A stretch of DNA of 32,597 nucleotides from an uncultured bacterium (GTDB lineage: Bacteria > Chlamydiota > Chlamydiia > Chlamydiales > SM23-39), in the NCBI GenBank assembly GCA_964400755.1, contig CAYNVX010000002.1:1-32597 (forward strand), written 5' to 3'. Position numbers: made by a program. This document shows, piece by piece, positions 12,001 through 18,000 of this stretch. Every line of letters begins with the position of its first letter. Positions within the stretch are counted from its first letter, which is position 1.

Positions 12001-15000
12001 TTTTAATAAACTATTAGGCCAAAGATATTTTGTTTTTCACTTGGGGACAGGAGATCCTGTCAAAGAATGGTCGTTAGAAGAGTGGAAAAGTTTAGCAAAG
12101 AAAGTCATAGAAGATGGTTATAGTATTGTTTTTACCGGAAAGGGAAAAAGAGAAAAAAAGAATATAGACTATGTTATGAATGGTTTAGATAAATGTTGCA
12201 ACTTATGCGATAAGTTGAATGTTGTAGAATTAATTAAGGTTATTAAAGAATCTCAACACGTTATTTGTTGTGATTCGGTTGTTAGCCATATAGCATCATC
12301 ATTTAATTTGAATACAACGGTTATTTTTTATAAAGGTCATAACGAAAAGCAATGGGTATTATCTAGTAACACTACGCAAATTGAAAAAATAGATTGAATA
12401 ATAGATAAATTTATTAAGATTGTATTATTTACTATAAGTTGCAATAAAATTTGATTGTTAAAGAGAGGGGGTAAGGAAGTCTTGTTAAGAAAGTTCATAG
12501 AAAGGTATAAAAAAGGATTTTTTAAGAATAAAGTTTTAGTGAAGAAAGCCGAGGAATCAAAAGATATTTTTGATGGAATGCAAATTTGTTTAGATATTTT
12601 TACTGGCTGTTTTGCTAAATGTCGATATTGCTATCATCAGTATAATAATATAACCCAACCACAAGCTATAAGTAGAGAAAATTTTTATAAAATTCTAACT
12701 ATTCTTAAAAGAGAAGGGTTTTCTTTTGTTTATCCCTACCTTTCAGGGAACCCATATTACATCCTAATTATTGGGAGTTTATTAAAGCATTTTCAAATGA
12801 AGGGATCATTACAGAAACTGCAACAAAGCTGAGTGCAAAATTAGATTGTTTAGCTATGAGGGATTGTTTTCAGAATATTTCTACAGAAGTTAAATTTCTT
12901 GTGACTATAGATTCTGTTGATCAAAACATTCAAGATAATATTGCTAGAGGGATAAGTGTAGAGTTAGTCAAAAAGAATTTAGGCCTTTTAATAAAAAACA
13001 AGCCTAAAAACGTTGAAGTTTTCGTTTATACGGTTATAAATAGGTATAATGAAGAAAATATAAATGAAATTAAGCGCTTTGTAAATGGACTGGGATTAAC
13101 ACATAACACGAAATCAATGGGCATTTTTTCCTCTACTATAATTAATAATGAATTTTATGAAAATATGAGGGATCTGTATCCTAAAAAATTACAAAATGAA
13201 AGATTTTATTTAGAAAAGGGAAAAGTTAAATCAAAGATGGATGCATGCGGTTATTTGAAGCCAGTTATCGGTCCAACGGGCGATGTCACTATTTGCTGCC
13301 ATGATATGATGTATAAAATAAATACCGGAAATATTCTTGAAAGTAATAGTCTAAAGAATATAATTCTTTCAAAAAAATATTGCGATTTTGTCGAAGCTGG
13401 AAAAAATAAAGAATTATCAATTTGTAAAGAATGCAATTGAATTTTATTTTTTTTACAAACAAAAAATAATAACATTATGATGGAACGTGAGTTGCTACCT
13501 TTATTATTCCTTAATCTAGGAAACAACTTATGACAAATAAATAATAGCGATAAAATATTTTGAATAATAGTTTTTTTACGTAGCCTAAATGTTAATTATA
13601 GCGTGTGTTTTTTGTTATATGCTAAAGTTCTAAACTAAAAAAAATGGAATTAAAATGGCAACTACAATAAATATTGACTTGTCTAAAAAACTTTATTATC
13701 AGCTTTTGCGTATTAGGAAGATTGAAGATGCTATCGGCGAACAATATCGTAAAGAAAAAATGAGATGTCCTGTACATTTTAGCATAGGCCAGGAAGCTGT
13801 AGCTGCGGGTGTTTGTGAAGTATTGAATACTAAAGATTATGTACTTAGCTGCCATAGATCTCACGCTCATTATTTGGCTAAAGGCGGGTCATTATCCAAA
13901 TTAATTTCTGAACTTATGGGAAAAGAAACGGGATGTTGTCTTGGTAGAGGCGGATCAATGCATTTGACTGAATTAGATGCTGGTTTTATAGCTTCTACTG
14001 CAATTTTGGGGGGGACCGTTCCAATCGGCGTAGGTGTAGCTTTTGCCAATCAATATAAAAAAGAGGATAGTATTACAACGATCTTTTTTGGAGATGGATC
14101 TACTGAAGAAGGTGTATGGGCCGAAAGTTTAAATTTTGCAGCATTGAAAAAGTTGCCTATTATATTTATATGCGAGAATAATTTTTTATCGGTTTGCTCA
14201 CAAATGTCTGTTAGACAAAGTCCGGGCAGAGATAGAGTCGCTATTGCAAAAGCTCATGGTATATGGGCAAAAAAAGGTTACGGTAATGACGTCGAAGAAG
14301 TATATTCATTAACAAAAGAAGCTAAAGAAATACTTATTAATGAAAGCGGCCCAGTTTTATTAGAATTTGATACATATAGGTTTCTAGAACATTGCGGGCC
14401 AAATACCGATTATGATTTGTCTTATAGATCTATTCATGAAATAAAGGAATGGTTGGAAAATTGTCCTTTAAAAGTTTATGAAAGAAAGTATCCGAGATTT
14501 TTTACAGAGTCTAAAGAAGAAATTGAAGCTATGAAAACTAAGATTAATAAAGAAATCAAAGAAGCTTTTGACTTTGCTGAAAAAAGCCCTTTTCCAAAAT
14601 ATAAAGCTGAAGAAGAAAAAATTTATGCAAAATAACCGTATTTTGAAATTTAATGAAGCTATTTTAGAGGCAACCGATCAGTTGTTAGAACTAGATAAGA
14701 ATGTCTTTGTAATAGGACTAGGCATCAACGATCCGAAAGCAATTTTTGGAACTAATTTAGGATTGAAAGACAAATATAGTACTGAAAGAGTCATGGATAT
14801 GCCTGCTTCGGAAAATGCTATGACCGGCATAGTAATAGGTTCAGCAGTTATGGGACTTCGTCCAATAATGATTCATCAAAGAGCTGATTTTTTGTTATTA
14901 GCTTTAGATCAAATTATTAACAATGCTTCTAAATGGCATTATATGTTTGGAAGTAAAATGAAGGTTCCTTTAGTGTTTCGGTTATTGATAGGAAAGGGAT

Positions 15001-18000
15001 GGGGACAAGGAGCGCAACATTCTCAATCTTTGCATGGACTGTTTTCATATATTCCTGGAATTAAGATTGTAATGCCGTCTACTCCATATGATGCTAAAGG
15101 GTTGCTGATATCGGCTGTTAAAGATAATAATCCAGTTATATACATAGAACATAGATGGATGCATAATACTTTTGGAGAAGTGCCAAAAGAAATGTATGAA
15201 GTTGAAATAGGAAAAGCCAAGGTAGTTAAAATAGGAAAGGATATTTCAATCATTGCAATTTCTGATAGTGTTCTTGAATCTTTAAAATCTATAAGTATTC
15301 TCCAAGAAGAGGGGATAGATGCTGAAATTATTGATGTAAGATCAATAAGACCATTAGATAAGAAAACTATAATTGACTCTGTTAAAAAAACAAAAAGAGT
15401 CTTAATAGTAGATTCAGATTGGAAAACTTCTGGTTTTTCTGCTGAAATATTATCAGTAATTTCGGAAGAGATTCTTTTTGAACTTAAAGCCCTGCCTAGA
15501 AGATTAGGGTTTGCGGAAATTCCATGTCCAACAAGCTGGTCTTTATCTAATCATTTTTATCGCAACTATAAAGACATTGCGTCTGAAGTTTTAACTATTA
15601 TGGGAGCTAATGATAAGGCAAGAATTTTATCAGAAGAGAATATAGAAATGAAAAATTCATCTCCACAAGATGTTCCTGATCCAAGCTTTAAGGGGCCTTT
15701 TTAATTAGCACTTTTTTGGAAAAAAACCAATTCCGAAAAGATAATTAGCCATAGGAAAAAAGCCTGTATGAACAACTTCATCATTCATAGAAAAAATAAG
15801 AACTTCTTTGAAATATTTTTGTAGAAAAATTTTTAATGTTGAAGCATCTTTTAAATTAATATGACCTTCTTTGCTTTCCTTAGAAGCATAGGGAAGTGCT
15901 GTTATATTAGGTAATCCGAAAATTGCTGTTGCATTAGGCGTTAATACTTTAATTATATTTTTTAAAACGGCATTTTCAAAATTAGGATCTATATGTTCAA
16001 TAAAATCTAAGGCGTACATTCCATCAAAAGGGCCAGAGGTAGGGGATTTTTTTATCATGTCAAGTTCTTGAAAGGTAATAGGTAGGTCTTCATTAGTATA
16101 TTGTTGTTTAGCATAAGAAATAAAAAGAGGATCAAAGTCGACAGCATGAATATTATTTACAGTTTGTAAGACTAAACGCGAACCGAAAGCTTCTCCGCAA
16201 CCTACTTCTAAGACACTTTTTTTTCCGGAGAGCATTTTTGAACAAAATTTATATCGTGAAAGTAAGAAGCAAAGATGTCTTGGATCTTCTCTCCATATGT
16301 GACTGCATGTTGGTCCTAGTTTTACTTGTCCCTGTTTTTTTATTGTTTCAAATTGAATTGAATATTGTTTTTCTTTTGGTATACATGCATCTTCTAATGT
16401 CATAAAAACCTTATTATATTTCTTAAATAGTTTGTTTTTGATCTATAATGTTTACATTTTTAAGTCTTTTAGGCAAAGATTATTCATTAAAAATATAAAG
16501 CAGTTTTACATGAAAAAAATCTAATTAGTACTACAAATAAAAAGCTTAATTATTTATATTATAATATTTTTTAACAAAAGGTTTGAAAGATGTCAAAAGA
16601 AACAGTTCAAGAATATGATAAACATAAATTAATGTATCACCCAAATAATATTAGTAGATGGTTAAATAAGGAAAAGACGTATCCAATTTATGTAGAAATA
16701 GCCCCTACATCTGCATGTAATTATAAGTGTATTTTTTGTGCTTTTGACTATGTTACAAGGAATGTAAAAACGATAGAGGAGAAGTTATTTTATTCTTTGA
16801 TTGATGAATTTAAAGAACTAGGCGTTAAATCAGTAATGTTAGCTGGGGAAGGAGAGCCTTTACTTCATAAAAGTATTGGTAATTTTGTTAGCTATACAAA
16901 AAAAAATAATATTGATGTTTCAGTTACAACAAATGGCTCGCTTTTGAATAGAGTACAATATGAAAATTTTTTACCATATTTATCTTGGATGAGAATTTCT
17001 TTTAATGCAGCTTCAGAAAAAACCTATATGAAAACTCATTCCGTTCAAGGGAAAATGTTTTATCAGACAATGGAAAATATAAAAAATGCAATGGAATTTA
17101 AGAGAAAAAACAAGTTGAATGTAAATATAAGCATGCAATTTCTTCTTGTTGAAGAAAATGCTCATGAATTAATTGAAATTGCCAAGGTTGGAAAAGAACT
17201 GGGTGTAGATTATTTGAGTATAAAACCTTATTCTCAGCATCCTAAAAGCATCAATAAATTGGGAATAAATTATGAAAATTTTGAAGATTTAAAAGAAGAA
17301 ATTATGAGTTACGCTACTGATGATTATAAAATTCTTTATCGAGTCAATGCTATTAATTCATTAATGACGAAAAAACAATATGAAAAATGTTATGGCCTAG
17401 ATTTCTTTTCATTAATAGATGCTGACGGAAATGTTATTCCTTGTAATTTGTTTTATACAGGTACAAAAAAAGATTCATTCGGGAACATTAGAGAAAATTC
17501 TTTTAAGGATATTTGGGATGGACAAAAGAGAAAAGAAGTTATAGATGAAGTGAATAAAAATCTTTGCACAAAGTGTCGGTTGGGGTGTCGATTAGATTCT
17601 ATTAATAACTATTTACATCGAATTATCAATCCGTTTGAGCACGATAATTTTATTTAATAGTATTGAAAATATGTTGCAAAAGAATTTAAAAACATTAGTT
17701 ATAGGAAATCAAGGATTTATAGGTAAACACTTCTTTGATTTTTATAAAACAATAGATCCAATGATTATTGGAACTCATTATAAAAACTCAAACTATCTTA
17801 TAGATTTATTAAATCCGGACATTACGGATTTGCCCATTAAAGCAAGCGAATATTCTTGGGCGTTGATTGCATGCGGTAATGCTAAAATTGCCAGTTGTGA
17901 ATCTAATAAAAGGTTAAGCTATTTGGTTAATGTTGGAGGAATTGTGTCTTTAGTCAGGCAGTTTTTGAGAATGAATATAAAGCCAATTATTATTTCAACA

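Follow-up and report, generated by a model that had tools for sequence, protein, structure and literature searches.

Sugar-branching enzymes of the E1 type belong to the alphaKADH2 group, with the pairs TxnB3/TxnB4 (trioxacarcin), KstD7/KstD8 (kosinostatin), Pau11/Pau12, also designated Plm8/Plm9 (paulomycin), AviB1/AviB2 (avilamycin), EvdU5/EvdS3 and KbDH-alpha/beta (kibdelomycin). To our knowledge, all of those known so far come from antibiotic clusters of actinomycetes. The group name is that used in the literature, where KbDH-alpha/beta is described as joining pyruvate with ketones in vitro (reviewed in PMC12247030); surrogate ketones employed for it were dihydro-2H-pyran-3(4H)-one and 2-methyl-tetrahydropyran-4-one. 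KbDH is the only alphaKADH2 enzyme tested in vitro, its donor was limited to pyruvate, and enzymes of the group branch sugars at C3 or C4 (PMC12247030). The same 2025 review lists no experimental structure for them and sees alphaKADH2 enzymes mainly in the formation of specialised metabolites, and YerE-like ones in that of lipopolysaccharide (LPS) (PMC12247030). Deletion of txnB4 abolishes the C4 two-carbon-branched octose of trioxacarcin (PMC5659172), and for the biosynthesis of paulomycin and avilamycin, genetic evidence implicates homologous pairs (PMC4425429, PMC4802897, PMC4753412). Here we analyzed a pair of thiamine diphosphate (ThDP)-dependent E1 alpha and E1 beta genes on a stretch of 32,597 nucleotides (32.6 kb) from an uncultured Chlamydia-like bacterium, in the following called the window.

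The window is an entire contig (C2, CAYNVX010000002.1) of a metagenome-assembled genome (MAG, GCA_964400755.1) of 1.49 Mb, which comprises 171 contigs, is 89% complete and has a GC content of ~30%. A sequence-only reading of this DNA had described overlapping E1 alpha and beta genes with a GDG...NN motif at positions 13655–15704. Both genes were confirmed, with a correction to the start of E1 beta: the longest open reading frame (ORF) begins at TTG 14568, and homologues favour ATG 14625, which results in a protein of 359 residues and an overlap with E1 alpha of 11 nt. The ThDP/Mg motif of E1 alpha is intact (G146-D147-G148 ... N175-N176) and His246 is conserved. E1 beta retains the catalytic residues Glu63, Phe89 and His132 in an alignment with PDB entries. 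The pair is not of the YerE type, i.e., it is not a single polypeptide with TPP_enzyme_N/M/C domains but consists of separate alpha and beta subunits, and we infer a heterotetramer-type enzyme. No match to an E2 or E3 family was obtained for any of the 29 window ORFs, as the sequence-only reading had also stated for the vicinity of the pair. Judged from sequence comparison, the pair fairly likely belongs to the sugar-branching alphaKADH2 group, as an E2-independent ThDP enzyme that would put a pyruvate-derived two-carbon unit on an activated keto-sugar.

We assembled 80 homologous loci from a scan of species-representative genomes and ran all window proteins against them by tblastn. At an alpha identity of at least ~40%, an E2 gene was never present within 10 kb and sugar genes were found instead, whereas at ~38% or less an E2 gene was usually adjacent. 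In a tree of the concatenated alpha and beta subunits (IQ-TREE, 77 rows, 690 columns), the window pair was part of a 40-row clade (UFBoot/SH-aLRT 100/100, branch 0.37) that held no E2-adjacent row. E2-linked E1s, including the pdhAB of the bacterium's own relatives, were placed outside. A tree of alpha alone recovered this clade as well. The alpha-only tree contained a 51-row clade (100*) with the window alpha, TxnB3 (P0214) and an alpha subunit from Micromonospora okii (P0180), again with no E2-adjacent row. The phylogenetic comparison with E2-linked E1s that the sequence-only reading had proposed hence came out on the side of sugar branching, with TxnB3 in the same alpha clade. TxnB3 from the trioxacarcin cluster had surfaced in a search with a clade member from a Streptomyces plasmid and is 42% identical to the window alpha (2e-90). 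The M. okii pair lies beside genes for a 3,5-epimerase, an EryCIII-type glycosyltransferase and a 2,3-dehydratase, i.e., kosinostatin-type deoxysugar genes, and we take it to be KstD7/D8 of kosinostatin, assuming that the strains correspond.

Hosts in the 40-row clade are Chlamydia-like genomes, Pelagibacter, Leptospira and Rhodospirillales, furthermore Ratteibacteria, Omnitrophota, Planctomycetota, and several phyla of the candidate phyla radiation (CPR). An archaeal MAG without classification is also among them, and in the alpha-only tree a locus from Aenigmatarchaeota joins. Such a patchy distribution is typical of glycan genes. In a search of a plasmid collection we found cultured carriers of clade pairs that can be used for testing, Azospirillum oryzae KACC 14407 (plasmid NZ_CP054615.1) and Solidesulfovibrio magneticus RS-1 (pDMC1, NC_012797.1), as well as a clade member on a Streptomyces plasmid. 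A Phaeobacter plasmid match with 38% identity was rejected, being a canonical E2/E3-linked complex and not a sugar-type pair. Coxiella burnetii CBU0692/0693 were considered as possible homologues, but two papers on Coxiella LPS do not mention them as such, and they were dropped.

A comparison of the 40 clade rows with 36 outside rows (32 E2-adjacent, four on short contigs) yielded ten columns that are near-invariant within the clade and different outside; these signature features were derived in this analysis and not taken from the literature. In the alpha subunit they are P39 (Phe outside), E152, N211, G248 and D252, which is inserted in the loop past the conserved His246. The beta signature consists of G42, R86, D88, G127 and R177, with R86 and D88 flanking the invariant Phe89. 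By alignment, Phe89 is presumably the equivalent of Phe85 in human beta, which lies at the pyrimidine of ThDP. Moreover, in the alignment of both subunits, a C-terminal beta extension of 25–45 residues was present in 27 of the 40 clade rows and in none of the 36 outside rows. The final residues of this extension, at the very C-terminus of the protein, form the motif F-x-G-P-F, or G-P-Y in actinomycetes. In the window it comprises ~35 residues (325–359, positions 15600–15704) and ends in F-K-G-P-F. The M. okii pair has all ten signature residues and the F-x-G-P-[F/Y] beta tail in common with the window pair. In an AlphaFold2 (AF2) monomer model of beta with a pLDDT of 88.8, the extension forms a confident helix (residues 329–345), and the last six residues have a pLDDT below 50. 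Because these six residues are left unmodelled in the AF2 beta monomer, the tail motif probably binds to the surface of a partner; a role in gating the active site or in shielding the E2-docking surface is conceivable. Together with the signature residues, the beta tail could serve to tell sugar-branching E1s from metabolic E1s, which are now automatically named 'pyruvate/acetoin dehydrogenase'.

We next considered the other E1 and E2 genes of the MAG and its relatives. The best NCBIfam matches of the window pair are PDH (pyruvate dehydrogenase) E1 models, with 272 bits for PDH_E1_alph_y on alpha (cut-off 393.85) and 286 bits for PRK09212 on beta (cut-off 321). A second E1 in the MAG is a fused alpha-beta protein of 682 residues (contig C78) that passes the beta-subfamily cut-off; moreover, the MAG holds one E2 (contig C85) and one E3 (contig C1). 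A census of 40 related genomes revealed three classes of E1 alpha. The window type (52–62% identity) is patchy and occurs in eight of them, the canonical pdhA of pdhABC operons is 28–36% identical to the window alpha, and the third class is the fused alpha-beta E1 (23–28%). As seven genomes hold all three classes together, the window-type E1 is a paralogue of PDH E1. Five relatives carrying a window-type pair have a pdhA-type gene within a pdhA-pdhB-E2 operon, and in the four of these that were searched for sucA, a second E2 adjoins sucA. A further, stand-alone E2 class coexists with the fused E1 in relatives, and the sole E2 of the MAG is orthologous to this class (50–53% identity) and not to PdhC or SucB. 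Since the three E2 classes of the four relatives map to PdhAB, SucA and the stand-alone class, no E2 is left for the pair in the sugar locus.

To describe the genomic context of clade pairs, we counted gene families within 8 kb of the E1 pair in 39 clade loci. E2 was found in none of them. The most frequent neighbours were extended short-chain dehydrogenases/reductases (SDRs) of the epimerase/dehydratase type (27/39), DegT aminotransferases (16/39), a 219-residue methyltransferase (MT219, 15/39) and a permuted HldE-like enzyme (14/39). GmhA-like SIS proteins (12 + 4 of 39), zinc-dependent alcohol dehydrogenases (12/39), GHMP kinases (8/39) and B12-radical SAM (S-adenosylmethionine) enzymes (7/39) followed. 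NTP transferases were present in six loci, as were radical SAM/SPASM homologues of the window gene at 16590, in this case adjoining the E1 pair, and YerE-like ThDP enzymes in five. At least one heptose-pathway marker was present in 24 of the 39 loci, and because of these genes the acceptor is probably heptose-derived, i.e., a nucleoside diphosphate (NDP)-4-keto-6-deoxyheptose rather than a hexose. The UbiE-like 219-residue methyltransferase is the most faithful non-SDR companion of the E1 pair across phyla; copies 41–49% identical to the window gene stand beside E1 in loci of Pelagibacter, Leptospira, Ratteibacteria and chlamydiae. Its target may be the branch itself or positions near the new tertiary centre. 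Compact operons in relatives and Azospirillum have two SDR genes, then the SIS and HldE-like genes in either order. In the compact chlamydial operon, the E1 pair directly follows the HldE-like gene and a 4,6-dehydratase-like SDR comes after E1 beta; in Azospirillum, an SDR gene precedes the E1 pair and two DegT genes follow.

From the enzyme family, a reaction sequence can be proposed in which ThDP would add to pyruvate and CO2 would be lost to give a hydroxyethylidene-ThDP carbanion. Instead of being passed to a lipoyl-E2, the carbanion would attack the ring ketone of a nucleotide-activated keto-sugar, and the product would be a tertiary alcohol with a C-acetyl branch. In this scheme, the donor, the acceptor, the position of the branch and whether it is added before or after glycosyl transfer are all inferred. 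An NDP-heptose might be provided by the GmhA-like, permuted HldE-like and GmhB-like enzymes of the window, and a 4,6-dehydratase-like SDR would convert it to the 4-keto-6-deoxy acceptor. The sequence-only reading had assigned formation of the acceptor to the 4,6-dehydratase gene at 31595. This gene is still a candidate, with a 34–35% identical homologue directly after E1 beta in relatives (synteny in loci L109–L116), but the SDR gene at 25926 is another, with 54–67% identical copies within the E1 cassettes of other genomes (tblastn), and the acceptor is more likely heptose-derived than a hexose. Subsequent changes to the branch or the ring would fall to the neighbouring reductases, methyltransferases and radical SAM enzyme, and incorporation of the sugar into a surface glycan to the glycosyltransferases.

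Best matches to PDH E1 models, together with an E2 and an E3 in a MAG where canonical pdhAB, aceE and sucA were not found, could also indicate a housekeeping E1 of PDH or branched-chain 2-oxo acid dehydrogenase (BCKDH) that uses the single E2 and E3. We consider this very improbable: the pair scores below all curated cut-offs and is separated with 100/100 support from every E2-linked E1, while a fused E1 that does pass its beta-subfamily cut-off is at hand, and the E2 is orthologous to the class found alongside fused E1s in relatives. Moreover, the window type is patchy among relatives (8/40), and the MAG is only 89% complete. Hardly credible is an acetoin dehydrogenase E1 (AcoAB, acetoin:dichlorophenolindophenol oxidoreductase), against which the sequence-only reading had also wished to check the pair. 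Some homologues are automatically named 'acetoin dehydrogenase', and TEED assigns the acetoin:dichlorophenolindophenol oxidoreductase to the same alphaKADH2 superfamily (PMC12247030). Yet among the window ORFs there was no acoC, acoL or acoR near the pair, E2 is absent from all 39 clade loci, and the E2-linked sister rows stand outside the clade.

Within the same family and with the same C–C bond chemistry, the details might differ from those proposed above, i.e., the enzyme might use a longer 2-oxo acid such as 4-hydroxy-2-oxopentanoate, a C3 keto group or a hexose, act after glycosylation, or catalyze a second branching step that complements a YerE-like enzyme. In erwiniose biosynthesis, ErwJ/ErwI supply 4-hydroxy-2-oxopentanoate to the ThDP brancher (PMC9306805). 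In one relative (G008, L114:13481-16589), the E1 module is followed by DmpF/DmpG-like genes for an acetaldehyde dehydrogenase and a 4-hydroxy-2-oxovalerate aldolase; by analogy to ErwJ/ErwI, some relatives might use longer 2-oxo acids as donors. Branching at C3 as well as C4 within alphaKADH2 (PMC12247030) and the post-glycosylation branching proposed for avilamycin and paulomycin (PMC4425429) point in the same direction, as do the YerE-like enzymes in five of the 39 loci and in the MAG itself. We nevertheless regard such deviations as rather unlikely, given that no DmpFG homologue was found in the MAG, that the tested alphaKADH2 enzyme was limited to pyruvate (PMC12247030), and that all signature residues are common to the window and the pyruvate-type actinomycete pairs. 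A different ThDP chemistry in the glycan pathway that leaves the ring unbranched, e.g., one in which a 2-oxo acid borne by the sugar is decarboxylated or two carbons are delivered to a non-sugar acceptor, appears improbable. The NDP-sugar dehydrogenase-like gene and the GFO oxidoreductase could oxidise a heptose side chain, and one clade member is found among genes for an acyl carrier protein (ACP) and a condensation-domain protein. The window, on the other hand, is without ACP, condensation domain or E2-like carrier, and tree and signature residues place the pair closest to the sugar-branching pairs.

The YerE-like enzyme of the MAG is encoded with an SDR on contig C96 (2822–5460). Another contig (C13, ~1–6400) has genes for a GHMP kinase, an NTP transferase, a C-methyltransferase and paralogues of an unnamed 367-residue protein. 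In a Simkania-like locus (L087), the counterparts of the genes on both contigs (43–67% identity, or ~31% for the 367-residue paralogues) are contiguous with the E1 pair. There, the YerE-like gene and an SDR gene lie directly upstream of E1 alpha and E1 beta, followed without interruption by genes for a methyltransferase and a C-methyltransferase. Because of this correspondence, we regard the glycan locus of the MAG as split across contigs and as holding two ThDP-dependent C–C bond-forming enzymes, which possibly act on two differently activated heptoses.

Several points weigh against assigning a sugar-branching function to the window pair. The classical branching step could belong to the YerE-like enzyme, with the E1 pair performing another C–C step. 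The sequence-only proposal of two-carbon transfer to a 4-keto nucleotide-sugar gains support from the tree, the paralogy, the lack of a spare E2 and the signature, but in view of the YerE-like enzyme the exact step of the pair may be a different one. The sugar-branching references in the alpha tree were limited to TxnB3 and the KstD7-like alpha of M. okii. One clade member (L117, Streptomyces griseofuscus pSGRIFU1, with an identical alpha in S. rochei) lies outside a sugar context, with ScbR/SARP regulators, a condensation-domain protein, an ACP, a phosphopantetheinyl transferase and ketosynthases as neighbours, and its acceptor may differ. In the window, heptose genes and dehydratase candidates are 8–16 kb away from the E1 pair and not adjacent as in relatives. 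As to the check for a separate PDH or BCKDH in the genome, the pair is not the sole E1, but no pdhABC was found in the 89% complete MAG, nor were aceE or sucAB. This may reflect a reductive loss of PDH and 2-oxoglutarate dehydrogenase or the missing 11% of the genome, and with these genes not found, moonlighting of the pair with the single E2 stays formally conceivable. Finally, activity and product measurements are confined to actinomycete members, and none of the carriers has a glycan of known structure.

The surface-glycan and nucleotide-sugar locus of the window extends from position 11321 to the contig end (~21 kb), which is reached 7 nt past the last SDR gene (Table 1). In addition to the genes listed, it holds a gene of the GT9 heptosyltransferase family, a GT1-like transferase gene and two genes without family match; class I methyltransferases number three in the locus. 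Window homologues bear the names Simkania, Parachlamydiales and Neptunochlamydia, and outside of the glycan genes the window encodes two Tyr/Trp permeases and a 725-residue GreA fusion; all three features suggest an environmental Chlamydia-like host. The radical SAM and methyltransferase genes that the sequence-only reading had placed around the E1 pair are present, with the upstream radical SAM gene being split. Its frameshift lies near 12815–12832, with CxxxCxxC in 12455–12832 and SPASM in 12856–13440 in different frames. The split gene is weakly similar to an intact 349-residue radical SAM gene at the same place in a 72%-identical locus (L086). In this locus, the methyltransferase gene convergent with E1 beta has a syntenic, 84% identical counterpart. 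The transaldolase is the probable supplier of sedoheptulose-7-phosphate. The HldE-like enzyme has its nucleotidyltransferase domain at the N-terminus and its PfkB heptose-7-phosphate kinase domain at the C-terminus, and all of its NCBIfam scores are below cut-off. A scan of positions 13300–16700 found promoter-like sites no commoner than in shuffled sequences and no terminators, and gives no evidence on operon structure.

Table 1. Coordinates of the E1 pair and of further genes in the glycan locus of the window.
Feature	Position	Strand	Evidence
Radical SAM/SPASM gene upstream of E1 alpha, frameshift-split	12455..13440	+	Pfam SPASM 1.4e-9 (second piece); reading frames
E1 alpha, ThDP-binding, 326 residues	13655..14635	+	Pfam E1_dh 3.8e-60; aligned to human PDH E1 alpha
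E1 beta, 359 residues	14625..15704	+	Pfam Transket_pyr 8e-27, Transketolase_C 9e-28; PDB alignment
Class I SAM methyltransferase, 232 residues, convergent with E1 beta	15705..16403	-	Pfam Methyltransf_25
Radical SAM/SPASM enzyme, intact, 355 residues	16590..17657	+	Pfam; NCBIfam matches all below cut-off
RmlD-like NDP-sugar 4-ketoreductase-type SDR, 319 residues	17635..18594	+	Pfam RmlD_sub_bind 2.7e-35; TIGR01214 118 bits, below cut-off
UbiE-like methyltransferase, 219 residues	18545..19204	-	Pfam; conserved near E1 pair elsewhere
GmhA-like SIS isomerase	23965..24642	+	Pfam; NCBIfam gmhA match below cut-off
GmhB-like HAD phosphatase	24632..25153	+	Pfam; NCBIfam GmhB match below cut-off
Transaldolase	25165..25899	+	TIGR02134 342 bits, above cut-off of 282
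Extended SDR, epimerase/4,6-dehydratase-like, 328 residues	25926..26912	+	Pfam, tblastn, NCBIfam
HldE-like bifunctional enzyme, permuted	26924..28489	+	Pfam CTP_transf_like and PfkB; NCBIfam rfaE domains I and II
GFO/IDH/MocA oxidoreductase, NDP-sugar dehydrogenase-like protein, Fcl/RmlD-like SDR	28482..31571	+	Pfam, NCBIfam
dTDP-glucose-4,6-dehydratase-like SDR, 331 residues	31595..32590	+	Pfam; TIGR01181 185 bits, below cut-off of 365

The kind of enzyme is known; new with respect to the literature surveyed are that a Chlamydia-like bacterium has it in a surface glycan locus of heptose type and that the clade is so broad. Sugar-branching-type E1s are thus found in cell-surface glycan loci, including those of Pelagibacter, Leptospira, CPR bacteria and DPANN archaea, and these loci are usually heptose-linked. 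If the proposed function is true, it predicts C-branched heptose-derived sugars, a class so far unseen in any glycan. As a tentative extension, which we hold possible but would not yet bet on, the pair might be the brancher of an undescribed pathway from NDP-heptose to a 4-C-acetyl or 1-hydroxyethyl 6-deoxyheptose, i.e., a branched nonose that environmental chlamydiae would display on their surface. The same cassette would then operate in Pelagibacter, Leptospira, Azospirillum, CPR and DPANN, with the beta tail gating the active site or filling the E2-docking surface.

The described systems can be compared with the window pair as follows. With the E1s of PDH and BCKDH (human PDHA1/PDHB, Geobacillus E1p, chlamydial PdhAB), it shares the fold families, the ThDP motif, the catalytic Glu and two active-site His residues. 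It differs from them in having no E2 partner, in scores below the family cut-offs, in ten diagnostic substitutions, among them beta Arg86, Asp88 and Arg177, and in the 35-residue beta extension. YerE and ErwE resemble the window pair in the proposed ThDP-dependent addition of an acyl anion to an NDP-4-keto sugar and in their location in Gram-negative surface-glycan loci, but they belong to another superfamily, that of the acetolactate-synthase type, with all three TPP_enzyme domains on one polypeptide. The actinomycete alphaKADH2 pairs have, like the window pair, separate alpha and beta subunits without a cognate E2, encoded among keto-sugar-forming genes. They are part of antibiotic clusters and linked to dTDP-2,6-dideoxyhexoses, whereas the window pair is found in an LPS-type surface-glycan locus of heptose type (GmhA/HldE-like/GmhB) in an environmental Chlamydia-like host.

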